The notes: generated by a model from the letters alone, not told the origin. A stretch of 22,667 nt of DNA from a virus (IMGVR_UViG_2778261501_000002:1-22667), one strand, 5' to 3'; positions 8,491-22,667 are shown, counted from the first letter of the stretch. Numbers and translations are program-made.

Positions 8491-9530
8491 AGGCTGAAGC
8501 ATGGCGGGTCAGCAAACTTGGTGAAATACCTGATATAACGTTCGAGGAAGCGTGTGTCAGGTGGCTTGAAGAGAAAGCACATAAAAAATCGCTGGACGAT
8601 GACAAAAGCCGGATCGGATTCTGGCTTCAACATTTCGCAGGAATGCAACTAAGAGACATTACTGAATCAAAAATTTATTCAGCAATGCAGAAAATGACGA
8701 ACCGGCGTCATGAGGAAAACTGGAAACTCAGGGCAGAAGCATGCAGAAAAAAAGGGAAACCTGTTCCAGAATACACGCCAAAACCAGCGTCCGTTGCAAC
8801 GAAGGCTACGCATCTTTCATTTATAAAGGCCCTACTAAGAGCCGCAGAGCGTGAATGGAAAATGCTGGATAAGGCACCAATTATTAAAGTGCCTCAACCA
8901 AAGAATAAACGGATCCGCTGGCTGGAGCCCCATGAAGCACAAAGGCTGATTGATGAATGTCCGGAGCCATTAAAGTCTGTTGTTGAATTTGCACTGGCAA
9001 CAGGCTTAAGACGCTCGAACATCATCAACCTTGAATGGCAACAAATAGATATGCAGCGCCGGGTGGCATGGATAAACCCGGAAGAGAGTAAATCAAACCG
9101 CGCAATTGGCGTTGCGCTGAATGATACTGCATGTCGCGTATTGAAAAAACAAATCGGGAATCATCACCGTTGGGTATTTGTGTACAAGGAAAGCTGTACC
9201 AAACCAGACGGAACGAAAGCGCCAACAGTAAGGAAGATGCGGTATGACGCAAACACAGCCTGGAAAGCGGCGCTGAGACGGGCTGGTATTGATGATTTCA
9301 GATTTCACGACTTGAGACACACCTGGGCAAGTTGGCTGGTTCAAGCCGGAGTCCCGTTGTCAGTGTTACAGGAAATGGGAGGCTGGGAGTCTATCGAAAT
9401 GGTTCGTCGATATGCTCACCTTGCACCTAATCACCTTACCGAACACGCACGGCAAATAGACTCGATCCTGAACCCATCGGTCCCAAATTTGTCCCAGTCA
9501 AAAAATAAGGAAGGTACTAATGATGTGTAA
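8367..9530 (+). CDS. int: Tyrosine integrase (lambdoid P22/DLP12-type)
   Basis: 387-aa ORF, GAGGA SD 6 nt upstream of ATG 8367; conserved HDLRHTW and RRYAHL catalytic motifs; strong resemblance to enterobacterial prophage integrases as recalled. Confidence 0.92.
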
Positions 9531-9702
9531 CTTATTGATTTTAATGGTGCCGATAATAGGAGTGTAACACGCGATAAATCTTGTGTTCGGGTCTTCTTCT
9601 ACGACCTTCGCAACTACCTGATTTAACGATTTTTACGCACACTGATAATCTGGCATTCATCATGCACATGATAAACGCCCCTAAACTTTAACGGGGTGGA
9701 AA

Positions 9703-10956: not shown

Positions 10957-11235
10957 TCATTTATTCCATTCGTTTTGAATTTGATTCTCAACTGCTGGCA
11001 AAAGGTTATACCAGGAAGCAGAGTTATTCTTAGCATCAACAACAATCAACTTATCATCGCTATCCATCGCTGCCCGAACTTTTCTGGCAGCCTCTTCAAC
11101 CGAATAATTCGAATTTACGTACCAGTTCGACTCGGTAACTTTTGCCCAGTTGCCCAAGGCCTTGATAGCATCATGCACAGCAGCATAATCTTTGGTTTTG
11201 ATCAAGTCATAGGTTACAAACAAGTTGTTAGCCAT
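10957..11235 (-). CDS. Hypothetical protein (92 aa)
   Basis: GGAGAG SD 6 nt upstream of ATG 11233-11235; alternating strand/helix pattern suggests a small alpha/beta fold; no family recognised. Confidence 0.5.
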   Translation of the reverse strand: MANNLFVTYDLIKTKDYAAVHDAIKALGNWAKVTESNWYVNSNYSVEEAARKVRAAMDSDDKLIVVDAKNNSASWYNLLPAVENQIQNEWNK

Positions 11236-11422: not shown

Positions 11423-11573
11423 AAAAACACCTCATCTTGGAGATAAAGAGTGAACTGCTTACCCTTTTAAGGGTAAGGGACAAACGAAGCGGCGTCAAAG
11501 AAAAACACCACATATACACATCCTTTACAAACCGAGCGCAATATGTGGTATTCCCATGTGATTTACATCACAA

Positions 11574-13424
11574 TCATCCCCCTGTGGATGACTGACCGCT
11601 CAAGGCTGATAGCGTAAGGCTACGAGTGAATGAATCCGCACTCGCTTTTGCAGACCAGTCGATATAGTCAGACAATCGAGAAACATCACTTTGCAGAGTC
11701 AATCCCACTTGTGGATTCACTTGTAGGTTGAATATCGGGTTCAACGTGTACGCTGGCGCGTTGCTGCTGTTGAGCGACATTGCCGAAGCACGGAGATTTT
11801 CCCCTGAAAGGCTGTATTGATTAGTCGCTGTCCCTGCTTGCTGATTACCAACGCCCAACCAATCCATGATAGCCGGAGCCACTGAACGGGTATCAAACCC
11901 CGTTTTATCCTGAATCCAATCGGCCGTAGCATTCGCAGAGCCACCCACAGCACCATCATAAAGATTTTGAACAGCAGGTTTCTTAGTATCGCTAAACCAT
12001 TCAGGGTGTTGTTGGCGGAGAGTACTGTTAAGATCAGACACTACGCTGGAGATTTCTCCAACAAAGCCCGTCACCTGTTTAGCCAGGTCGCCTAATCCCT
12101 CTCCGAGCATACCAGCAGATTCTGTTATCACTTTGGTGTTCTTCACCAGGTCGTCACCACCATCAGCAAAGCCTTTCATAAAGCCTGTAAACATGCTGTT
12201 ATCAACGCCATTCATGAGATTACCCATCGCTACACTCAGATCACCATATGCAAGAGTTTGCTTGATCTGCTCCTCGTTAAGAGTTTGACCACTATCGACA
12301 AGCTGTTTCAGCGTCTTGTTATATTCTGCACCGTTGTTCATGAACATATCGGTGTAGTGCATCAGGTCATCACCTAAACTCTCTATAAGCGTACCAATCT
12401 GAGCCTGTGACATACCACGGCGTTGCCCTTCATTGGTAACTGCTTGAAGTAGATCAGCAGGACGATCCTGGAAGGATTTAATCTGTTCTTTGCCCCATCC
12501 AAACTTATTCATAATAGAAGTGATACCACCATCGCCGCCTTTCCATTCGCCATTTTTAAACTGGCTATCGTTCAGGGTCATAGCGATACGTTCACGTACA
12601 TCTTTGAAATTGTCCGTCACTTTATCGACATTGGCGCTATCAACTCCGTGTTGCTGCCCCCATGCCACCATCGTTTTAACTACGTTAGGATTAGTCTTAA
12701 CAAGTTCCGATTTTCTAACCAAGTCAAGATTTTCATTCCCTTTGTCAACAATTCGCTGCCCCACTCCGAGGGAGCCAGCCGTTAACGCAAGGCTTCCTAA
12801 TACCCCACCACCGACGATAGGAGCATTCCCGCCCTTCTGAGCCTTTAGCTTAGTGGCTGCTGCGGCATACTGGGTACGCTGTGCCTGTGTCACTTTCGCT
12901 TGTTGTGCGGCTTCTCTGCGTAACAGGGTTACACGCTCGCGTATAAGCGCATTCATACGTTGAGAGCTAATATTCCCCTTCGCAAACTCTTCGCTTTGCT
13001 GATGAATATAACGTAACGCTTCATACTGAGATTTAGGATCAAGCCCGTATTTACCTTTAATTCCTGACACTTGTAGCCCTGCATGGCGAAGTTTAAGCTC
13101 GGCTGTCTCTTGGCGCTTCTGTAGCTGCTGCTTCGCTTTCAGATTGGCCTTTTCATCCCTGGCTTTCTGCTTCTCCGCCGCACGTTGGGCTTTCATTTCC
13201 TTCGTATCACGAGGCTTATCATTAAAACGTGCATCATCGGCTTGTTGACGGGCTTTCTGTCTGCGCTGCTTCAGATCCTGGAAGCGAATCTTGGGATCGG
13301 CTATTTTCTGGAAGTGCTTTTGAAGGTTATCCGCTGCGGCCTTAGCCTCTGCAATACTCCCTTTGTCAACGGTGAAAGTTACGGTGTTGACGATCTTACT
13401 TGTATTAATCTCAAGCATCGCCAC
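11574..13424 (-). CDS. Phage tail tape-measure-like protein
   Basis: 616-aa ORF with a long charged coiled-coil N-terminal region and Gly-rich hydrophobic segments (GGGVLGSLALTAGSLGVGQ). Start is ambiguous: GTG 13424 or ATG 13418. Confidence 0.45.
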   Translation of the reverse strand: MAMLEINTSKIVNTVTFTVDKGSIAEAKAAADNLQKHFQKIADPKIRFQDLKQRRQKARQQADDARFNDKPRDTKEMKAQRAAEKQKARDEKANLKAKQQLQKRQETAELKLRHAGLQVSGIKGKYGLDPKSQYEALRYIHQQSEEFAKGNISSQRMNALIRERVTLLRREAAQQAKVTQAQRTQYAAAATKLKAQKGGNAPIVGGGVLGSLALTAGSLGVGQRIVDKGNENLDLVRKSELVKTNPNVVKTMVAWGQQHGVDSANVDKVTDNFKDVRERIAMTLNDSQFKNGEWKGGDGGITSIMNKFGWGKEQIKSFQDRPADLLQAVTNEGQRRGMSQAQIGTLIESLGDDLMHYTDMFMNNGAEYNKTLKQLVDSGQTLNEEQIKQTLAYGDLSVAMGNLMNGVDNSMFTGFMKGFADGGDDLVKNTKVITESAGMLGEGLGDLAKQVTGFVGEISSVVSDLNSTLRQQHPEWFSDTKKPAVQNLYDGAVGGSANATADWIQDKTGFDTRSVAPAIMDWLGVGNQQAGTATNQYSLSGENLRASAMSLNSSNAPAYTLNPIFNLQVNPQVGLTLQSDVSRLSDYIDWSAKASADSFTRSLTLSALSGQSSTGG

Positions 13425-13608
13425 CGCCTTTTTTACTCACCAGATAATTAAGTGCATCTGATACACTACGCCCACGATGTAATAACTGACGTAGATGACC
13501 GTGATCTATTTCAAGCACACGACACACTCCCGCCAGATTTAATAACTCTTCTGCTGTTTCAGCATTTACGGCGAGGTGAAGCCCCGCGCTTTTTACAATC
13601 ACTTGCAT
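13411..13608 (-). CDS. Hypothetical protein (65 aa)
   Basis: GAGGAA SD 6 nt upstream of ATG 13606-13608; stop overlaps the start of the tape-measure-like gene. Confidence 0.4.
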   Translation of the reverse strand: MQVIVKSAGLHLAVNAETAEELLNLAGVCRVLEIDHGHLRQLLHRGRSVSDALNYLVSKKGGGDA

Positions 13609-13630
13609 TTATCTTTCCTCATTCTGGAAA

Positions 13631-13665
13631 TAAAAAAGGGCGGGAACACTGGGGAGATGTTCCCA
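13631..13665 (-). terminator. Rho-independent terminator downstream of the capsid gene
   Basis: On the minus strand: GGGAACA stem with 10-nt loop, then GCCC and TTTTTTATTT. Confidence 0.5.
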
Positions 13666-13727
13666 ACGTTCACACGCCCTATTCAATAGCCTGATTATTT
13701 CCAGCGGGTCAGGCTCCCGCTTGCTCA

Positions 13728-14759
13728 TTAAGCAGTGATGGTGATCTTCACCTGCATACCTAACGCATGGTTCACTGGTAATGCGCTGTTTTCGTGCATA
13801 ACGTGGTAAGCATCGCCGCGCTCGCTCAGGTAGCCCCAAGAGTAGTATTCAGCAGGTGCAGCATCGATCAGCGCAAAGTTACCAGAGGCAGCGCCGTAGA
13901 TGTTCTGATAAGCATTTGTGCCTTTACTGAACACCGGAACCGCCACCATGTCAGCATCATCTGGCATCTGTGCAAGGATCAGCGGATCTGTCACTTTAAC
14001 AATGTCGATAGGCGCACCAGGTAGGCTAAACGTACTAACACCAGGGAGAAGCTCGTGACGCTGGTAGAATAGGTTACGGTCGTCATATGGCGCTACATAC
14101 TGGAACGCCTTAGACATACTGTCAGAGAAGCGAATCTGGCTAAATGCAGCAGGTTTAGCGAATACGATCACTCGTTCAATCTGTCCAGCCAATCCACCTG
14201 CGGCAGCCTGAACTTTGTCTAAGATCGCATCAAAATCCTGTGCCGCTGTCGCTGTGCTCACGCTGGCTGTCATTGGCACCACACCGAACAGTTCAGCATA
14301 AGAGATCAGTAGGTCATCAGTTGCAGGCGTATAAACTTCACCTTTGAACAGAGCACGGGCCAGGTAAGACTCACGGGTACGCAGATAAGCAATCTTATGT
14401 TTGCCAGTGTATTCGGTGTACAGGTCGGTAACGGTTTGCTCGTAGTCCGTTCCCTGCACTCTGCGGCCTTGTACGTCTACAGGTTTAAACTCATCTTCCC
14501 TTGCAAACCAAGGAATCTCGATAAGGTATTCTTTGCCATTCTGACGCGCGGTAGTGTCGTGGTTTGATGAATAACGGCTCTGCGGGGTGTTAAACAGGCT
14601 GTAGTTATCATCCAGAAGCTGTGTCACCACCACTTTCGGATTCTGAACACCTACCCCGTCGAATAGGTCGAGGGCATTCATAAGATAGTTACGTTCCGGC
14701 AGAGCCTGGAAGATTGGCGCTAAATCGACCATCTCACGCCCAATTGCGATTTTACTCAT
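13728..14759 (-). CDS. Phage major capsid protein, lambda gpE-like
   Basis: 343-aa ORF, AAGGAAG SD; size and C-terminal pattern (WGYLSERGDAYHVMHENSALP) resemble the lambda gpE family as recalled; preceded by a roughly 110-120-aa gene as in the lambda D-E arrangement. Confidence 0.5.
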   Translation of the reverse strand: MSKIAIGREMVDLAPIFQALPERNYLMNALDLFDGVGVQNPKVVVTQLLDDNYSLFNTPQSRYSSNHDTTARQNGKEYLIEIPWFAREDEFKPVDVQGRRVQGTDYEQTVTDLYTEYTGKHKIAYLRTRESYLARALFKGEVYTPATDDLLISYAELFGVVPMTASVSTATAAQDFDAILDKVQAAAGGLAGQIERVIVFAKPAAFSQIRFSDSMSKAFQYVAPYDDRNLFYQRHELLPGVSTFSLPGAPIDIVKVTDPLILAQMPDDADMVAVPVFSKGTNAYQNIYGAASGNFALIDAAPAEYYSWGYLSERGDAYHVMHENSALPVNHALGMQVKITITA

Positions 14760-14775
14760 TATTTATCTTCCTTGA

Positions 14776-15135
14776 TTAAGAGGTGAAGAATGGACGGCAT
14801 ACGAACCCTTTGGATTCGAGCGTGGTGATAGCTGCGGCGTGATTAGCTGCGTGCAGGTTGTCGGCTTTCAGTGCTACGAAGCTACCAACATTAGGCGCAC
14901 GTAGGACATTCACGGTTTTACCGTCGCCAGCACTCACGAAATCACTTACCACCACAAAGGCATCATCGCCGGAGGTGTATAGAGCGCCATCAGCGCCGAT
15001 AACATCGCCGCATTCAATATCTGCTGGCAGGTCGAAAACACGGCCTTCTACGACTGCAAAAGAATCAGTGGCGTAGCTCAATACGTCAGTGAAACTCTTA
15101 CGAATTGGGAAAAGTTCGGTTAGGTCTACAATCAT
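14776..15135 (-). CDS. Putative head decoration-like protein (119 aa)
   Basis: Position and size relative to the capsid gene; ATGA overlap with the upstream 71-aa gene. Assigned from gene order only. Confidence 0.3.
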   Translation of the reverse strand: MIVDLTELFPIRKSFTDVLSYATDSFAVVEGRVFDLPADIECGDVIGADGALYTSGDDAFVVVSDFVSAGDGKTVNVLRAPNVGSFVALKADNLHAANHAAAITTLESKGFVCRPFFTS

Positions 15136-15347
15136 TGTTGTTTGATTTCCTTGGATTTGATTGCGATCCGTTCCTGCATACTAAGTTGAGGTGTGTCCTC
15201 AGAAGGGAAATACTGGTCTACAGCTTTTTCTATTTCTTCAACGGTACATCCTGCCATTTCAGCCACTTTAGCTATTAACTCAGGATTAACTTGAATCACT
15301 TCGGATTTGTATTTTAGGATTCGGTCGCGATTGTTTATTAAGAACAT
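15132..15347 (-). CDS. Hypothetical protein (71 aa), first gene of the head-gene operon
   Basis: AAGGAA SD 7 nt upstream of ATG 15345-15347; translationally coupled to the next gene. Confidence 0.4.
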   Translation of the reverse strand: MFLINNRDRILKYKSEVIQVNPELIAKVAEMAGCTVEEIEKAVDQYFPSEDTPQLSMQERIAIKSKEIKQQ

Positions 15348-15415
15348 TGTGTTGTTCCTTCGCGTTATAACTGCGTTTATCCTTCCATTGATAACGGAAG
15401 TGTTACATGCAGATT

Positions 15416-15440
15416 GTTAAAAAGGGGCGATTAAGCCCCT
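15416..15440 (-). terminator. Rho-independent terminator candidate
   Basis: On the minus strand: AGGGGC-uuaauc-GCCCCU followed by UUUUAAC. Confidence 0.4.
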
Positions 15441-15732
15441 GGAGAATATGCCCTTGTTAGAAAGCATTCTGTTAAAATCATTTTCGTTTCGGAGGATTAT
15501 GATGTTAAAGAATGGCTTCTTGAAAAAATGAAGGGTGCAACTGTTACGAATAACAGAAGTAGGATCGCCCGTCATTGCTCCCACTTCAAAACAGAAGCCC
15601 TTCTGTCATGGCGAGAAGTGGGAATGGAATCTCAATATCACCACTGGAATAGTAATAAGAGATTGCCAGCCTGAACGTAACTACCGCTGACGGCGTTTAT
15701 TCAGTCTGACTACATTCATCCTAACGGAATGA

Positions 15733-15966
15733 ATGAGCAAAGAGCGAATGCCCTTTCTGAAAAAGTCGGAGATGCGCGGTGATTGCGATGCAATACCAAC
15801 ACAACGAGATATTACATCCCGCGCATTCCTTCGGAACAAACAAGACAAAGAACCAACACTTTCAGAAATAGCATTCAGAGGGAGAGAATGCCGCTATGGG
15901 AACGGCATTCTCAAGGAGTGCGTATTGACATACGAGGGTGAAGTGATTCGAATACTTACCCTATAA
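15733..15966 (+). CDS. Hypothetical ORF (77 aa), weakly supported
   Basis: Open frame with only a weak SD; convergent with the gene at 16014-16352. Confidence 0.2.
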   Translation: MSKERMPFLKKSEMRGDCDAIPTQRDITSRAFLRNKQDKEPTLSEIAFRGRECRYGNGILKECVLTYEGEVIRILTL

Positions 15967-16013
15967 CTCATTATGACACATATAGCACATAATGTCAAGA
16001 CATTTAGTAACTT

Positions 16014-16352
16014 TTATGTTATGGCGCATTCTTCCGCGATCTGGATGGAAAGCTCTCCGAGTTCAACGGTGATGTATTGCAGAGAGCAAGCAAGCTCCTC
16101 AAGGTCATTAGCTACACGCCACGCTTCTTCTGGTGTGATCGAACTGCCGTCACGCTGCACCAAACGAGCTACAGACGTTTGCAGATGTTCAAGGGCAGTG
16201 ATTGCCTGTTCAGTGTATTGCACCGCTTCCAGAAGCGCGGAGGGCGTTCTCTCACGCCACGCTGCATTAACAAGCTGTAAGGTTGGTAAATGCCAGTTGT
16301 CGTGGAAAGAGTTAATTAGGGTGTTCACTGTGTCCATAGTTTTATTATTCAT
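16014..16352 (-). CDS. Hypothetical protein (~112 aa)
   Basis: AGGAAAA SD upstream of ATG 16350-16352, which overlaps the stop of the upstream 127-aa gene; the track's longer 144-aa start at 16448 is less likely. Confidence 0.4.
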   Translation of the reverse strand: MNNKTMDTVNTLINSFHDNWHLPTLQLVNAAWRERTPSALLEAVQYTEQAITALEHLQTSVARLVQRDGSSITPEEAWRVANDLEELACSLQYITVELGELSIQIAEECAIT

Positions 16353-16728
16353 TGTTTTCCTTGTCGTCAAAGAGAATATCAAACTCTTGTGTGTGCTGGG
16401 ATAGCCCCCAGGTTTGACAATACCCAATATAATCGGCGTAATGTTCAAATCCTGCTATTTGCCATTTCTTGAGATGGCTACTATCTATAATATATTCGCG
16501 TCTGCGTCGTGGTTTGTAATAAACGTTATCCGTTGACGATAGAACATCCTGCAATAGTTCAAACTCTAATCCATTTGGTACTACTGCGGGATATTCTTTA
16601 ATAGTTGTCACCATCTCACCAGGAATAGACTCTCGTGCGAGGTCTTGTAGAGAAGAGGTGTATTTACGTTTGCTGATGCGTGTGGCTTTTTCGATTCTAA
16701 CAAGGTTACTTCGTTCTTTTCGTCCCAT
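16345..16728 (-). CDS. Hypothetical protein (127 aa)
   Basis: GAGGAA SD upstream of ATG 16726-16728; basic N-terminus. Confidence 0.45.
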   Translation of the reverse strand: MGRKERSNLVRIEKATRISKRKYTSSLQDLARESIPGEMVTTIKEYPAVVPNGLEFELLQDVLSSTDNVYYKPRRRREYIIDSSHLKKWQIAGFEHYADYIGYCQTWGLSQHTQEFDILFDDKENNE

Positions 16729-16832: not shown

Positions 16833-17294
16833 TTATTTAGTCGTAAGTGTAATGTCGCATCCTTTACCGCGACCAGGTTTGATTAACGTAGTAGTTAGAT
16901 AATCATTGCGGCGAAGCTTGCGAATCGCACTGGATACAGTTGCCACACTTATCCCCAACACTATCGCTATTGACTCCTGTTTCACATTTGTTAATGATGG
17001 CAGTGATTCGAGGTGCATTAATACCAGACGTTCCGAAGGAGACAGATTCTTATCGTGAAGATGTGGGGATGTCATTTTACATTCTATCTCTTTCGGTGGC
17101 TTCATCGCTGCATTGAATAGCGTAACAAGAGCATTAGCGTAACTTGATTCACCTCGCTCAGCGTAAACATCTACAAGTTCTTGCGCTTGTTCGAATGCAA
17201 CACCTCTTTCAACTTCTGGATTTAATAAACTGGCAAGATGGATGATGTTAAGATCACGTTCGTTGTATTGTTTGGGTATAACCGTTTTCAGCAT
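16833..17294 (-). CDS. HTH-domain protein (153 aa), putative regulator or replication-associated
   Basis: C-terminal winged-helix-like segment (VKQESIAIVLGISVATVSSAIRKLRRNDYL); start overlaps the upstream gene's stop. Confidence 0.5.
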   Translation of the reverse strand: MLKTVIPKQYNERDLNIIHLASLLNPEVERGVAFEQAQELVDVYAERGESSYANALVTLFNAAMKPPKEIECKMTSPHLHDKNLSPSERLVLMHLESLPSLTNVKQESIAIVLGISVATVSSAIRKLRRNDYLTTTLIKPGRGKGCDITLTTK

Positions 17295-18028
17295 AAATGT
17301 TCTATTTCCTCGTAGATTGGTTTAAGTTTTGGATTCTTCTCTGTGTCCAGGTATCCGTTAATAAGTAGCCATCTGATTTTCGGATGTTGTGAAACTGGTA
17401 GATTCTTTTCAGGATTCTCCCATTCATCCCGATAACCCTCAAGAAAGTTTAAATTAACTGGCTCTATCTTAATATCTTTAGCTGGAATGGAGGCGGGTTT
17501 CTTCGTAGGCATTTTCTTTGGCTTCTCCGGCTTCGGATCTGCTTTGGCCTCTTCTGGCACTGACTGCTGTTTTTCTTCCTCTGGCGCTACGTCTTCTTTA
17601 GCTTTGCCAAACACGGGATGTTTCAGACAATCTACCCATTCCGGCGCGGAATCACGTTCCATCGCATTACGATCACGTTCAAAGGTGAAGTTTTGCGGCG
17701 TGAGTGGCGTTATAGTCCATTGGTTAGAGCGCTTTGGCTTATTACTGGCGATCAGTCCGATTTTCTTCAACTTTGCAACAATACGTGTTGCCGTAGCCGA
17801 GCTGACACCAATACTTGCACCAAGTTGATCAATGTCATCGTAATAAGTACCGCCCAACTCTATCGCAAAGCGATAATAACGATGGCGCATTCTGACGTAA
17901 AACTGCTTATCAGCAGGAGACAGGGACTCTGTTACGCCTGTTTTAAGATTGGTGATCCTGGTGCATTCGTTAAATGCGTCTTCGGTGTTGGTGAAACTAA
18001 AAGCCTTACTGTTTATAATGTCAGTCAT
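17288..18028 (-). CDS. HTH-domain protein (246 aa) with K/E/P-rich linker, putative regulator or replication initiator-like
   Basis: HTH segment (IDQLGASIGVSSATATRIVAKLKKIGLI), low-complexity charged linker, then a C-terminal domain. Confidence 0.5.
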   Translation of the reverse strand: MTDIINSKAFSFTNTEDAFNECTRITNLKTGVTESLSPADKQFYVRMRHRYYRFAIELGGTYYDDIDQLGASIGVSSATATRIVAKLKKIGLIASNKPKRSNQWTITPLTPQNFTFERDRNAMERDSAPEWVDCLKHPVFGKAKEDVAPEEEKQQSVPEEAKADPKPEKPKKMPTKKPASIPAKDIKIEPVNLNFLEGYRDEWENPEKNLPVSQHPKIRWLLINGYLDTEKNPKLKPIYEEIEHLC

Positions 18029-18042
18029 GTTAGGGTGTATCC

Positions 18043-18219
18043 TTATTTGGTAGAACGTTCTCCGTTCTTAATTGATGTGGAAAGTGTGGTTGCAGCGTCA
18101 ATTAACATCTCCTGCACTGTTACGCCTCTCGCTCGCGCCTCTTTGAACAAAGTACTAAACACTTCATCCGGCAGTTTTACGAATGTTCCGGCTGGTTTCT
18201 TCTTCTGGATTTCGCTCAT
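18043..18219 (-). CDS. Small ribbon-helix-helix-like DNA-binding protein (58 aa)
   Basis: AGGAG SD 7 nt upstream of ATG 18217-18219; predicted strand then helices (GTFVKLPDEVFSTLFKEARARGVTVQEMLIDAA); not in the supplied track (under 60 aa). Confidence 0.45.
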   Translation of the reverse strand: MSEIQKKKPAGTFVKLPDEVFSTLFKEARARGVTVQEMLIDAATTLSTSIKNGERSTK

Positions 18220-18237
18220 TTGGTTTCTCCTTCTGGT

Positions 18238-18486
18238 TTATTCGTTGGTGGTGGTTTCAGCCTGTTCAGCTTTCCATTGATCGTAAAGTTCGATTCCTTT
18301 ACGCAATCTTTCAGCGTGTTCGAAATATCCTTGCCGTTGTGCGGCTGCTCGCTGGCTGTTTATTGCATTTCGCGTCTGGCTTCCGGCCTTTAAAGCCTCG
18401 AAGACAAGTTCTGGATTAAAATACTTAATTTTGGTTCTCCTTGCGTTAGAAACACAGAAACACCATCCAGGGAGAACGTTAATCAC
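18238..18486 (-). CDS. Hypothetical protein, start uncertain (GTG at 18486, or in-frame ATT at 18429 behind a strong SD)
   Basis: The only strong SD (AAGGAG, minus strand at 18442-18437) sits 7 nt upstream of an in-frame ATT codon; there is no ATG/GTG/TTG within reach of it. Confidence 0.3.
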   Translation of the reverse strand: MINVLPGWCFCVSNARRTKIKYFNPELVFEALKAGSQTRNAINSQRAAAQRQGYFEHAERLRKGIELYDQWKAEQAETTTNE

Positions 18487-19164: not shown

Positions 19165-19291
19165 TCTAAAAGCTCTCTTTTAGAGATCGCTTTTAGAATC
19201 TCTTTGTATAGAACATCAATTTGATGTGTAGTTTGCCGATCCATACATCAATTTGATGCGTATCCCATGCATCTATACATCATTTTGATGT
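19165..19291. promoter_or_regulatory. Operator/iteron-like repeat cluster
   Basis: Perfect inverted repeat TCTAAAAG-ctct-CTTTTAGA (19165-19184); three 13-bp palindromic repeats CATCA(A/T)-T-TTGATG at 19214-19226, 19246-19258 and 19278-19290 with exact 32-bp phasing. Confidence 0.55.
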
Positions 19292-20050
19292 ATAACGCCC
19301 CCAACTAACTCTGATTCATCCATGCAACAACACTAAGAGTAACGAGAGGTTATTCCTATCAAAACAACACGATAATCATAGCTAAGCCTATCTTAAATGA
19401 CAGGTAAAGATTGCCGTTGTTACATGGGTAAAGTTGCCATAGTCAGCAAGATAGTAACCATCACTCACTTTGCGTAAAGCCTTGCGCCATGCGGCTCACA
19501 GCGATCATTGTCCACAATGAGGAGTTTCATGACAGGTGCAATGTGCTGAACGAGTTTTCTAAAATGAAACGATGTTTCTTTTTCATGCCAAAATCCACCA
19601 ATTGATTAGCATTCTAATCATTTCATTACACACTCAGTTTCAAGTGCATAAACTCCGCATAATTTGTGCATACAGGCAGGTTAGCCCCGCCCTCGCCTAA
19701 CAACCTTACATTTATCAGATTTAAATCAATGAGATAGACAATAACCACACACAAGCATTGGTAGTGTGATGTTCCGCTGTTGCCGCTGTTCTTCGTGCAG
19801 AGTTGAGGATTTGGCAATGTTCAAACACATGTTTATAAATGCCAACATCATGATTTTGTTCAAGATATTTAGAGGAGAAGAAATTTTCGATCTGGAGGCG
19901 GCCCTGGAGGTCGTTAAGCACTGGACGCAATCGCGCCATTTACCACACACAAGACAGTTCGATTTTTGATCATTTATATTGCAACTTACTGAAATTGATC
20001 ATATTGTTTGTTTCGTTGAGTTTAGATGTGTGTCTTTATGGGAGGGTAAA

Positions 20051-20611
20051 TTGAACAGAGCAGTAGTGTTAGACGAACAGCAAGCCAAAGCGATCAGGGA
20101 GTGGCTAAACGCTCATAACAAGAGCCTGATAGCTGACGTTACGTTAATGATGCAAGCCGCTGTACTGCGTGTGGGGGATGCCGTAGCGTTACGCTTCGAC
20201 GAAGTGATCAACGGTGAGATTGACATAGAAGAACAGAAGACAGGGAAGCGTAAAGCCCTCACTCTCCCTGCTCCAGTGGTGCAGATGATTGCTCGTCGCC
20301 GTGCTGAGTATCCGCATGATGTGCATGTGTTCAGAAGCCAGCGTAACCGATCAATGAACAAGCAAGCGCCTGTACGACGCGAAGAAGTGAGCAAGCAGAT
20401 CGCAGAGGCCGCTAAAGCTATCGGTATTCATGGCACTGTATCAGCTCACAGCTTCCGCAAAGCTGGCGGGAATGCCATCTACAAGCGTTCAGCAAACAAC
20501 ATCGCTTTAGCTATGACCGTGCTTAATCACAGCAACATCACTGACACCAGGCGCTATCTGGATTTAGACAAGCAAGCCGTTAGCCGTGTGATCAATGAGA
20601 TGGACTTATAA
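20051..20611 (+). CDS. Small tyrosine recombinase, catalytic domain only (~186 aa)
   Basis: GGAGGG SD 4 nt upstream of in-frame TTG 20051 (the track start at 19979 is also TTG); motifs LRVGDAVALRF (box I Arg), HSFRKAGG and TRRY (catalytic Tyr); no N-terminal arm/core-binding domain. Confidence 0.65.
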   Translation: MNRAVVLDEQQAKAIREWLNAHNKSLIADVTLMMQAAVLRVGDAVALRFDEVINGEIDIEEQKTGKRKALTLPAPVVQMIARRRAEYPHDVHVFRSQRNRSMNKQAPVRREEVSKQIAEAAKAIGIHGTVSAHSFRKAGGNAIYKRSANNIALAMTVLNHSNITDTRRYLDLDKQAVSRVINEMDL

Positions 20612-20621
20612 GGAGATACGC

Positions 20622-20819
20622 ATGAAACGCTTGCTTGTGCTGACGCTGACAGTAATGCCAGTCCTGGCGAATGCCGGACAGATAACCCTGATTCTCAGTG
20701 ACGAACAGGAGACAGACAACGCGAAGATTTGCGTTTATTCCAACGCCAACTTTACGGAGACAGTGACGCTCAGGCCGTCGCAGCAATGCCGCTACACAAT
20801 GACCTTTGAAGAGGAGTAA
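20622..20819 (+). CDS. Small secreted/periplasmic protein (65 aa) with signal peptide
   Basis: AGGAG SD 6 nt upstream of ATG 20622; N-terminal signal-like MKRLLVLTLTVMPVLANA; two Cys in the mature part. Confidence 0.5.
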   Translation: MKRLLVLTLTVMPVLANAGQITLILSDEQETDNAKICVYSNANFTETVTLRPSQQCRYTMTFEEE

Positions 20820-20877: not shown

Positions 20878-21357
20878 TCACTGCTTGGAATCACGTAGGA
20901 TCAGAGACAATATCCACCACCAGCGACGACGCAGCCAACTAACATCACTGAACAGCTTCCCATCAGATGTAGTAACATACACCCCTCCGCGATGATGCAC
21001 CTTATTATGGTGAGCCTTATTGATGAATGGTACTTCTAAGATCATTTCATCACGGGCTTTTAATCGGCGTGGCAACATGGGGCTGATCATGTATTCATCA
21101 CAATGTTCGTTAGAACAATCGCTAAGGCGTCCGCTGGCGGTTACTATGCCCGCCGAACTTATCGTCACATCATGGGCGCTTTTGTTGGAAACATAAATTC
21201 TGTCTTCATACTGATCGCAACCTAAGAAAAGGCGTAGATCTGTTCTGGATTTTAATAGCTGGAAAATGGATAGTGCAAACCCAGCCCATGCGGCAAGCAT
21301 GGTCAGATTATCAACATTAAGCAACCAATCTATCAAAGTTCCATCCCTTGAGAGCAA
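20878..21357 (-). CDS. Hypothetical membrane protein, start uncertain
   Basis: One predicted TM helix (LTMLAAWAGFALSIFQLL); Trp/Arg-rich C-terminus; candidate starts are TTG 21357 or ATG 21300. Confidence 0.35.
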   Translation of the reverse strand: MLSRDGTLIDWLLNVDNLTMLAAWAGFALSIFQLLKSRTDLRLFLGCDQYEDRIYVSNKSAHDVTISSAGIVTASGRLSDCSNEHCDEYMISPMLPRRLKARDEMILEVPFINKAHHNKVHHRGGVYVTTSDGKLFSDVSWLRRRWWWILSLILRDSKQ

Positions 21358-21560
21358 AGATAATTAGCAATTCCTTGATGCTGTAAGTCAGTCAATTGGA
21401 AGTAGGAATCGAGTACGATTATGACTTGCGTGGCATTATCAGCATGAACAGAACCAGGGGTATCAGGAGGAAGCGAACCATCAAGGATGGCAGTAAAGTA
21501 ACCCGATGAGATAGAGACTTTCAGGAAGCAATTGGGTAAAAATTCGTAACGTTCACTCAT
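21333..21560 (-). CDS. Hypothetical protein (75 aa)
   Basis: GAGGTGG SD upstream of ATG 21558-21560 (MSERYEF...); the track's longer 104-aa start at 21647 is less likely. Confidence 0.4.
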   Translation of the reverse strand: MSERYEFLPNCFLKVSISSGYFTAILDGSLPPDTPGSVHADNATQVIIVLDSYFQLTDLQHQGIANYLCSQGMEL

Positions 21561-21723
21561 AACCACCTCATTTTCAGATTGTTTCTGCAAAGCGTACATT
21601 ACGAATTTTATTCTTTTACCGCATTTCAAACCAAATGACAATTCCATTGAATCAGTTGAGGATTTTAACCCTCACCGAAGATAACATAACCTCAAAATGT
21701 CTATCGCTTCATTGAGGAAATGT

Positions 21724-22497
21724 ATGTCTACTGAAAATTTTGTCACCTTCTGGTTAGCCAGAGCCGATCTTCCATACTTTCTTGAACCCCATGAATTTTA
21801 CGTTTCTGAGGCAAGGCGGCGGCTTCTCTCTCAGTTTGGTGATTTAGAACAAGAAGCAGAGAAGAGAGAACAACAGTTTTTGGAGACTACTGCTGAGTAT
21901 TTTGATCAAGATAACGATGACCCAATGGCGGCCTACGAGCAAGCCTATCATGAGGGAATTTATTATGTACGGTCGCTTCTGGAGATGCAAAATACCGTAT
22001 TGTTGGCGTTGACAGCAGGTATGTATCATCAGTTTGATAAAAAACTAAGAGAACATACTATCAAAGAGCTAAGTAATTGGTGTGAAAGAGAATTGATTAC
22101 CCCCATGATCTGGAATTTAACTTTCCATCAGCTAATTGATTTGCTCGAATGGATTGGCCTCACAATCAATGGAACCGAATACGGAGAAAGGATAAAAGCC
22201 TGTAACTTGGTGGTAAACGTATACAAGCATGGAGACGGCCCTGCACATCAAACACTATCAGTTGATCATCCTGAGTATTACCCAAACCCCACCGATGTTA
22301 GAGGCACGCAGATTGTCCCTAACCATGACGATTTACATGTCTCAGAAGATCAATTTGTAGATTTTGCTAACGCAATAACTGCTTTCTGGAACGCGGTTCC
22401 AGAAAATTGTTACTACTCAGATCTTAGAGAAGAACCCAAATGGTTGGATAGAGTTGTGACAAGATTCGAAAAAAAGCATAGGGGCAATAGGGGCTGA
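21724..22497 (+). CDS. Hypothetical protein (257 aa), AT-rich cargo gene
   Basis: GAGGAAA SD 4 nt upstream of ATG 21724 (ATG 21697 is an alternative); no family recognised. Confidence 0.5.
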   Translation: MSTENFVTFWLARADLPYFLEPHEFYVSEARRRLLSQFGDLEQEAEKREQQFLETTAEYFDQDNDDPMAAYEQAYHEGIYYVRSLLEMQNTVLLALTAGMYHQFDKKLREHTIKELSNWCERELITPMIWNLTFHQLIDLLEWIGLTINGTEYGERIKACNLVVNVYKHGDGPAHQTLSVDHPEYYPNPTDVRGTQIVPNHDDLHVSEDQFVDFANAITAFWNAVPENCYYSDLREEPKWLDRVVTRFEKKHRGNRG

Positions 22498-22505
22498 TTA
22501 GCCCC
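22490..22505. terminator. GC-rich hairpin between convergent genes
   Basis: GGGGCT-gatt-AGCCCC overlapping the stop of the 257-aa gene; no clear T-run on either strand. Confidence 0.3.
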
Positions 22506-22508
22506 ATC

Positions 22509-22667
22509 TCAAAACATCAAGTTTGCAGCTCGCGCCAACTTGATTTCCTCTCGCTCTTCCTGCTTCTTAGCAAGCCAGGCTTTCCCCTCTGGTGTTGCCA
22601 GGAATTTACGGGCGTGAATCTTACGGTTGTTGCGCTTCGTGGCTGCTTTTTGGTTAGCTTTTGACAT
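22509..22667 (-). CDS. Small basic protein ORF reaching the window edge (52 aa if the ATG at 22665-22667 is the true start)
   Basis: Open frame from the window edge to TGA at 22509-22511; lysine/arginine-rich; possibly 5'-truncated by the window. Confidence 0.3.
   Translation of the reverse strand: MSKANQKAATKRNNRKIHARKFLATPEGKAWLAKKQEEREEIKLARAANLMF

Follow-up and report, generated by a model that had tools for sequence, protein, structure and literature searches.

Known phage satellites remodel the capsid of their helper phage, as P4, phage-inducible chromosomal islands (PICIs), and PICI-like elements (PLEs) do, or encode the entire head and packaging module themselves, as capsid-forming PICIs (cf-PICIs) do. 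P4 has a genome of 11.6 kb, PLEs use a large serine recombinase, and the helpers of cf-PICIs are temperate phages of the siphovirus type. Here we describe Element B, which lies in the stretch IMGVR_UViG_2778261501_000002:1-22667 (22,667 nucleotides, referred to below as the window) and combines a homolog of a phage tape measure protein with a shell protein. Element B is an intact, selected, and modular integrative element with capsid and cement genes of its own. A satellite reading is well supported by its anatomy and by comparison with its relatives, and we lean toward the view that it belongs to an apparently undescribed family of phage-satellite-like elements of Enterobacterales that would act by the mechanism proposed below.

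The SatelliteFinder definition (PMC10085698) asks of a cf-PICI at least 9 of 11 core components (integrase, AlpA/MerR regulator, primase-replicase, HNH, TerS, TerL, portal, protease, capsid, adaptor, and connector) and allows it no tail genes; predicted tmp genes have been reported in some cf-PICIs (PMC12987554). The PLEs of Vibrio cholerae, satellites of the virulent myovirus ICP1, form chimeric tails that are ~10 nm shorter; identity to the ICP1 counterpart is 20% for the tail assembly chaperone (TAC), 20% for the tape measure, and 41% for BhuB (PMC12987554). The EPIPs of Mycolicibacterium are satellites reported to encode both major capsid and tape measure proteins; according to the preprint on them, dated December 2025, no satellites other than EPIPs and PLE11 were known to have tape measures (PMC12822802). 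Our search of the literature on satellites of Stephanstirmvirinae and rV5-like phages, with partial coverage of subscription journals, found no description of the Element B family or of any satellite of Stephanstirmvirinae.

The window is part of an Escherichia coli chromosome, with thrW (tRNA-Thr) and proA as neighbors. Element B extends over 13.7 kb from about position 9564 to thrW, which lies ~580 bp past the right end of the window. Its left boundary is a copy of the thrW 3' end (L001 14545 to 14564, identical to L001 28248 to 28267; window positions are those of locus L001 minus 5001), and such copies mark the limits of tandem islands. Integrated, with its own integrase and attachment (att) repeats and an incomplete set of virion genes, Element B has the anatomical features by which phage satellites are generically recognized. 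The original prediction concerned positions 11574 to 15347, which are the middle third of the element only; it described a lambda-like head core and a tape measure-like gene there and left the choice between a decayed prophage and a satellite-like element. All five open reading frames (ORFs) of that region (p71, p119, the major capsid protein [MCP], p65, and a 616-aa ORF) were confirmed on the minus strand. The coordinates also bear out the coupled operon of 71-, 119-, and 343-aa genes, in which the last 4 nt of p71 are shared with the start of p119 and the MCP start lies 16 nt past the p119 stop, followed by a terminator (dG -11.4) and then by the 65- and 616-aa genes.

The 616-aa protein matched the PHROG tape measure family phrog_16051 (E = 2e-98) and aligned end to end, with both termini conserved, with the 662-aa tape measure of Phapecoctavirus anhysbys (E = 6e-90), whose gene sits between the tail chaperone and tube initiator genes. 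Its sole match in the PDB was Phi92_gp134 in entry 21vq (E = 3e-70), which also contains gp135, the tube initiator homolog. End-to-end homology, phage gene context, and the virion entry place the protein among phi92/phAPEC8-like tape measures, and by sequence comparison it is the tape measure homolog of virulent Stephanstirmvirinae. The tape measure assignment first made from the DNA was thus upheld, and the pilot or ejection protein offered as its alternative is not needed given the alignment and 21vq. The RefSeq label of the protein, "TolA," stems from its charged helical middle. Translation probably starts at the ATG at 13418, which would give 614 aa; this start agrees with the RefSeq annotation, and the phage homolog begins MLEIN. 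Full-length island tape measures have 608 to 640 aa, while phage tape measures are longer in every case (659 to 662 aa), and the two are 23 to 36% identical.

Our comparison covers ~50 loci, and presence counts are given out of 41 greedy gene sets. A Dit-like tube initiator gene follows the tape measure gene in 22 of the 41; its product is 52 to 74% identical to gp253 of P. anhysbys, which directly follows the phage tape measure and is the counterpart of phi92 gp135 and of the "tube initiator" of PhiTE. Pantoea-type members encode a homolog of the phage adaptor gp261 (38% identical), which is assigned to PF26075 (PhiTE adaptor family) in a precomputed Pfam table, while our own Pfam scan gave no family at E <= 0.01. 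No match to p65 was found among phage structural proteins, and a role as tail chaperone or Rta-like protein is only a guess.

The tape measure of the window led to 134 phage records, all listed as large virulent myoviruses of 140 to 160 kb (Phapecoctavirus, Justusliebigvirus, and relatives; Stephanstirmvirinae). The diverged allele of locus L004 likewise had 134 such records, and the Pantoea-type allele of L003 had two Klebsiella phages of 137 to 141 kb only. Phages of the phi92/phAPEC8 type do not lysogenize, so the tail genes cannot be remnants of such a prophage; Element B most likely parasitizes large virulent phages of this type, as judged from the homologies. The same local order, decoration gene before MCP gene and tape measure gene before tube initiator gene, is found with homologous proteins in the Stephanstirmvirinae (phi92, phAPEC8, and anhysbys). 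These are, however, virulent phages of 145 to 150 kb with complete virion modules, to which the MCP and cement protein of the island are only remotely related and whose tape measures exceed those of the islands by 20 to 50 aa.

The 343-aa protein proved to be a capsid protein, as first proposed: it matched Pfam family PF03864 over its full length (55.1 bits against a cutoff of 22.9; E = 8e-15; residues 10 to 340 on model positions 2 to 328 of 329), and every listed MCP homolog carries PF03864. The MCP family is small, with 334 matches among 1.84 billion representative proteins, 34 of them at E <= 1e-30. Its 46 homolog clusters are all from Enterobacterales, full-length members nearly all have 341 to 357 aa, and identity goes down to 41%. 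Against PDB sequences, the MCP profile matched 9zbi, then phi92 gp124 and the PhiTE, 9ncf, and Sf14 capsid proteins; lambda gpE was not matched among them at E <= 0.01. The head is therefore lambda-like at the level of fold and Pfam family, but gpE was not retrieved, and among named solved structures the phi92 capsid protein comes closest. Remote matches of the family grade into capsid proteins of the Phapecoctavirus type, and a hidden Markov model (HMM) comparison of the island MCP with that of the putative helper gave E = 2.6e-16. BLASTP of the island MCP and p119 against the phage MCP and decoration protein gave nothing significant, so the relationship between the head genes of island and phage is visible only by profiles and folds. 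A close MCP relative was absent among the phages of a 50,697-record collection. p119 has the two marks of a gpD-like decoration protein, fold and position beside the capsid gene; a role for p71 as small scaffold or adaptor is only a guess.

Pfam, PHROGs, and PADLOC scans of every sizeable ORF of the element turned up no family for portal, protease, terminase, tube, sheath, or lysis functions, in agreement with what had been read from the region, and no portal or terminase gene lies inside the element in any locus examined. Megablast of the element DNA against the 50,697 phage records found no shared DNA.

This reduced architecture recurs in Escherichia, Klebsiella, Enterobacter, Citrobacter, Cronobacter, Pantoea, Kluyvera, Buttiauxella, Scandinavium, and Pseudenterobacter. 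The shared order runs from the tRNA gene through variable cargo, a small recombinase, 1.5 to 2 kb without genes, a replication module, p127/p112, and a 0.7-kb gene-free gap to p71, the cement protein, the capsid protein, p65, the tape measure, a variable slot, and a large DUF6538 integrase. Wherever both ends are visible, the element measures 13.5 to 14.2 kb. Copies are integrated at thrW here and at tRNA-Leu(caa) elsewhere, with integrase alleles 33 to 53% identical between such copies, and the divergent alleles suggest that there are probably further integration sites. Compared with moderately diverged relatives, dN/dS was 0.05 to 0.08 for the capsid gene, 0.15 to 0.20 for the tape measure gene, 0.11 to 0.24 for the integrase gene, and 0.11 to 0.38 for small core genes, and no stop codons were present in the core genes compared. 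Tape measure alleles are shuffled relative to capsid alleles (L010, capsid 97% and tape measure 53% identical; L014, capsid 55% and tape measure 90%), and tape measure dS is several-fold that of the capsid gene within the same pair, as expected of a module that matches a helper.

The minus strand from ~18660 to 11490 forms a single gene train, in which the capsid operon has its own promoter, with a -35 element conserved in nearly all aligned loci, followed by a noncoding leader (Table 1). Conservation of the leader exceeds that of the flanking coding DNA; candidate ORFs in this 660-bp gap upstream of p71 were not accepted as genes, since in relatives they are interrupted by stop codons and frameshifts. 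The leader fold has 72 pairs, with 96.9% paired compared to 40 to 54% with slid partners, and 23 pairs show compensatory changes compared to 3 to 9 in slid controls. Nine covarying pairs lie in a 17-bp helix, and 0 of 500 shuffles reached the observed values on four of five measures. Hairpin T2, with its U tract, lies 69 nt before the p71 start (dG -11.5, z -3.9), with a weaker hairpin upstream. Rfam, searched with the whole element, leader included, at a permissive threshold, gave no match. The arrangement of a terminator behind a strong promoter implies that the capsid genes can be expressed only if transcription reads through; a processive antiterminator would presumably carry transcription past the terminator behind the capsid gene as well, into the tape measure gene. 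We regard the leader as a candidate new cis-regulatory RNA that may act through antitermination or through immunity like that of the P4 CI RNA; the P4 leader RNA, which causes premature termination, offers a possible analogy.

Table 1. Features of Element B in window coordinates, with the evidence or description for each
Feature	Position	Strand	Evidence or description
Distal att repeat, left boundary of Element B	9544..9563	.	20-bp copy of thrW 3' end
Large tyrosine integrase, 407 aa	9703..10926	+	DUF6538 and Phage_integrase
p92, accessory cargo	10957..11235	-	phrog_1090, E = 6e-23; slot between tape measure and integrase
Terminator after tape measure gene	11489..11511	-	dG -10.7, z -3.6
Tape measure homolog, 616 aa	11574..13424	-	phrog_16051, phage alignment, PDB 21vq; WP_060614977
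p65	13411..13608	-	Frame overlaps tape measure start by 14 nt; position conserved in most loci
Terminator after capsid gene	13641..13665	-	9-bp stem and CCCTTTTTT; dG -11.4, z -3.35
MCP, 343 aa, Phage_cap_E, HK97 fold family	13728..14759	-	Pfam PF03864; WP_060614978
p119, gpD-like capsid decoration (cement) protein, 119 aa	14776..15135	-	gpD-type fold, adjoins capsid gene; WP_058685495
p71, first capsid operon gene	15132..15347	-	Upstream of p119 in most loci
Structured noncoding leader	15348..15969	-	~620 nt gene-free, ends at p71 start; hairpins T1 (15570-15533) and T2 (15440-15423) with U tract
Capsid operon sigma-70 promoter, near consensus	15970..15998	-	TTGACA-17-TG-CATAAT; 11/12 matches and extended -10 TG
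p127 and p112, conserved core genes closing early operon	16014..16728	-	Found in 31/41 and 29/41 loci
Exchangeable replication/regulation module	16833..18486	-	HTH_36 protein of 153 aa, DUF6945 replication initiator-like protein of 246 aa, p58, p82
Iteron-like array	19213..19294	.	3 partly palindromic units of 18 nt (ACATCAATTTGATGTGTA), 32-bp spacing, in 1.5-kb gene-free region
Small tyrosine recombinase (186-210 aa, catalytic domain only) and p74	19979..20819	+	tRNA-proximal; recombinase 19979-20611
Variable tRNA-proximal cargo	20878..22667	.	159, 104, and 266 aa and partial ORF; 266-aa protein matches phrog_19541

The large integrase is kept at the same end in 34 of the 41 gene sets, with alleles 33 to 95% identical that track different att sites. 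Beside it, p92 is 78% identical to ORFs of P2-EC53 (a 2.2-kb record) and of phage R18C and looks like cargo common to P2-type phages and Element B. Relatives fill the place of p92, between tape measure and integrase, in other ways, with a tube initiator, with an EAL protein, with Kiwa, or with a protein whose weak resemblance to HEPN stays below Pfam cutoffs, and the surroundings of the tape measure and integrase genes are a cargo hotspot. The Kiwa genes (KwaA/KwaB) lie in the tape measure slot on the opposite strand at 9566 to 11108 in L006 and at 9541 to 11083 in L007. At the tRNA-proximal end, the small recombinase and p74 (~70 aa) are present in 21 and 15 gene sets, in which their relative position does not change; the small recombinase may be a resolvase, a directionality factor, or a regulator. 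The cargo next to them gave no match in PADLOC and Pfam, nor did the small ORFs in PADLOC, and relatives have different genes in this region.

The p127 family comprises 165 clusters, with the Element B architecture wherever checked; its AlphaFold 2 model is poor (pLDDT 55). Family HMMs of p65, p71, p112, p127, p58, p82, and p74 gave nothing significant against annotated Phapecoctavirus proteins, and neither did the same HMMs except that of p58 against six-frame ORFs of the Phapecoctavirus structural region. Upstream of p82 there are promoter-like sites (18661 to 18582), and in L044 and other loci a DEAD/DEAH helicase module replaces the HTH_36/DUF6945 module. The repeats at 19213 to 19294 are likely iterons or operators of the replication module, and the array is a candidate origin or operator; its conservation across the compared loci is poor, and the majority of these loci do not have the replication genes of the window. 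The best-conserved part of the 1.5-kb gene-free region is a block at ~19465 to 19595, which is 74 to 90% identical in ~20 loci and contains the palindrome CATTGTGGACAATG. Covariation was not detected in this block, making a protein-binding site more likely than an RNA.

The neighborhood of Element B contains other islands. Element A (window positions 1 to 9530, with its own integrase at 8367 to 9530) is a truly decayed prophage, in which RefSeq annotates partial pseudogenes for the large and small terminase subunits and for tail assembly and tail fiber assembly proteins, beside intact sheath and tube genes; it provides an internal contrast to Element B. The chromosome of E. coli strain AR_0128 is 99.97 to 99.99% identical to the window in two blocks, and the ~2 kb between them (window positions 5783 to 7766, in Element A) have no counterpart in AR_0128, which marks an indel between strains. 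Another thrW repeat, of 40 bp, lies in AR_0128 upstream of the window, giving a tandem island array at thrW. In at least 10 loci (L003, L004, L022, L026, and L028 among them), a gene for a P4-type integrase lies directly beyond the island. In L004 (15544 to 21032) it is followed by AlpA and primase genes (PICI- or P4-like), and in L003 by a SIR2/STAND defense gene and then by Psu and Ogr/Delta. These integrase genes indicate different satellites in tandem downstream of the same tRNA site.

It is possible, and we propose it tentatively, that this unrecognized family follows a double strategy, mounting its own small capsid on a stolen portal and packaging machinery while building chimeric tails around its own tape measure, in some lineages with a tube initiator or adaptor of its own, and with the leader terminator as a gate opened on helper infection. 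Phage infection would lead to excision of the element and to replication from its own origin, and transcription from the capsid promoter would pass the leader terminator through antitermination or refolding of the leader RNA. The capsid and cement proteins of the element would then form a small shell, sized for ~14 kb, on the helper portal and with the helper protease and terminase. Its tape measure, joined in relatives by the tube initiator, would substitute for that of the helper in otherwise helper-built tails, as in PLEs, and the outcome would be transfer of the island by particles and reduced helper progeny. Among these claims our confidence decreases from satellite status to replacement of the tape measure and tube initiator, then to the small shell of the element, and finally to leader gating.

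Several observations weigh against this scheme. Its weakest link is a distant shell protein that would have to use the helper portal and packaging machinery: since the island MCP is only remotely related to the helper MCP, co-assembly with the helper portal, scaffold, and protease is a real question. A packaging signal or small terminase was not found in Element B, and blastn of both noncoding regions against phages gave no similarity, so that no borrowed pac or cos site was detected. In L006 and L007, which represent one Pantoea-type lineage, Kiwa stands in place of the tape measure, so the tape measure gene is dispensable for the family. The Enterobacter-type copies in L046 to L048 are disrupted by insertion sequences (ISs) in the tape measure or capsid region, showing that individual copies decay although the family is under selection. 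Element B is also rare in E. coli, with 24 carriers among 5426 complete genomes; carrier strains include AR_0128, Ecol_224, and XYEH3934. Lastly, excised circles were looked for among the 10- to 14-kb metagenome contigs checked and were rejected; the L006 and L007 contigs have no terminal overlap and begin inside a tRNA gene and are therefore integrated copies.

The alternative that survives best, though we consider it unlikely, is a defense island that is not packaged and whose capsid, cement, and tape measure homologs serve mainly as poison or decoy subunits that upset virion assembly by the infecting phage. Kiwa and the weakly HEPN-like protein in the cargo slots would fit such an island, as would the absence of a detected packaging function and an MCP too distant from that of the helper for obvious co-assembly, and interference with tail assembly is known from Tai (PMC11364771) and from Rta of PLE11 (PMC12987554). 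Yet Element B has its own integrases, a replication module, iteron-like repeats, and a size conserved as tightly as if it were limited by a capsid. A full MCP and cement pair under strong purifying selection fits a working shell better than a decoy, and the tape measure and tube initiator pairs keep their full length and both termini. Interference and transfer are in any case compatible, as PLEs do both.

Much less probable is that Element B is a divergent or truncated member of a described family (cf-PICI, PICI, P4-like, or PLE). A capsid protein of its own as in cf-PICIs, a tape measure as in PLEs, the predicted tmp genes of some cf-PICIs mentioned above, and the frequent tandem arrangement with P4- or PICI-like islands all lend this idea some appeal. 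Like cf-PICIs such as EcCIEDL933, Element B is an integrated enterobacterial island of similar size with its own HK97-fold capsid protein and putatively helper-dependent tails. In contrast to their whole head and packaging module and their AlpA and primase-replicase modules, it is limited to capsid and cement proteins plus one small unknown protein. Only integrase and capsid were recognized among the 11 core components in Pfam/PHROG searches, leaving nine unmatched, and the tape measure, accompanied in about half of the relatives by the tube initiator, is a tail gene of the kind that the cf-PICI model forbids. The initial suggestion of a capsid-encoding phage-inducible island that hijacks helper components is supported as far as the satellite-like anatomy and comparison go, but Element B falls outside the cf-PICI definition, as it has a tail gene and lacks TerS, TerL, portal, protease, and connector. 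Searches for the marks of classical PICIs gave no AlpA, TerS, or Cpm-type match, and the replication proteins are of the DUF6945/HTH_36 or DEAD helicase type.

P4-like satellites share with Element B integration at tRNA genes, a small genome, and variable hotspots with defense genes, and P4 has a decoration protein, Psu. However, P4 encodes neither a capsid protein nor a tape measure and reshapes the P2 capsid with Sid, and Psu, Sid, Delta/Ogr, the alpha primase-helicase, and epsilon were undetected in Element B; Psu and Ogr_Delta occur only in the separate island neighboring the L003 element. PLEs resemble Element B as small integrated islands with a virulent myovirus helper (putative here), a shorter tape measure of their own, and defense cargo. 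Many members of both groups also have a baseplate-proximal partner, the tube initiator here and BhuB in PLEs, which is much closer to its helper counterpart than the tape measure is (52 to 74% versus 23 to 36% here, 41% versus 20% in PLEs). The two nevertheless differ in that PLEs take over the capsid protein of ICP1 and make the shell smaller by means of the scaffold TcaP, whereas the Element B family has its own capsid and cement proteins rather than a capsid-remodeling scaffold. They also differ in their recombinases, which are tyrosine enzymes here and a large serine enzyme in PLEs, in unrelated replication genes, and in host clade, and no tail assembly chaperone was recognized here. The resemblance to PLEs is functional, concerning the tape measure and a hub-proximal protein as described in PMC12987554, where chimeric tails were shown. 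EPIPs, by their description, have TerS, scaffold, adaptor, stopper, a serine integrase, a temperate siphovirus helper, and hosts of an unrelated phylum. Element B is PLE-like in its tail strategy and virulent myovirus helper, as read from its genes, and cf-PICI-like in its own shell protein, and is a member of neither group.

Plain decay, in which Element B would be a functionless deletion remnant of a lambda-like or myovirus prophage, is very improbable. Most virion genes are missing, the element adjoins the truly decayed Element A, and a few relatives are IS disrupted, as decay would predict. The same reduced gene set and size nevertheless recur in ~50 loci, which span at least 10 genera and several att sites; the genes are intact, under strongly purifying selection, and free of stop codons; the tail genes have their closest phage relatives in virulent, nonintegrating phages; and the 50,697-record collection offers neither shared DNA nor a close MCP. 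We reject decay on these grounds, and the comparative data likewise show no simple deletion derivative with inactivating mutations, the other outcome that the original prediction had allowed for. A self-sufficient minimal virus-like or gene transfer agent-like particle that needs no helper is scarcely credible: the element has its own shell, cement, replication, and integration functions, but genes for portal, terminase, tube, sheath, baseplate, and lysis are missing, and a tape measure can serve no purpose where there is no tail tube.

If the satellite reading is true, an island with shell, cement, and tape measure genes would show which parts of a virion satellites must own and which they can steal. 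Chimeric tails, shown only in 2025 to 2026 for the PLEs of Vibrio, would extend to E. coli, Klebsiella, Enterobacter, and Citrobacter, hosts in which the strategy would be easy to test genetically. The covarying leader RNA, which belongs to no Rfam family, is a candidate new cis-regulatory element. Phage collections for therapy and biocontrol commonly include Phapecoctavirus and Justusliebigvirus, the putative helpers, and resident islands that exploit or block such phages could explain strain-specific phage failure and could also spread defense cargo such as Kiwa.

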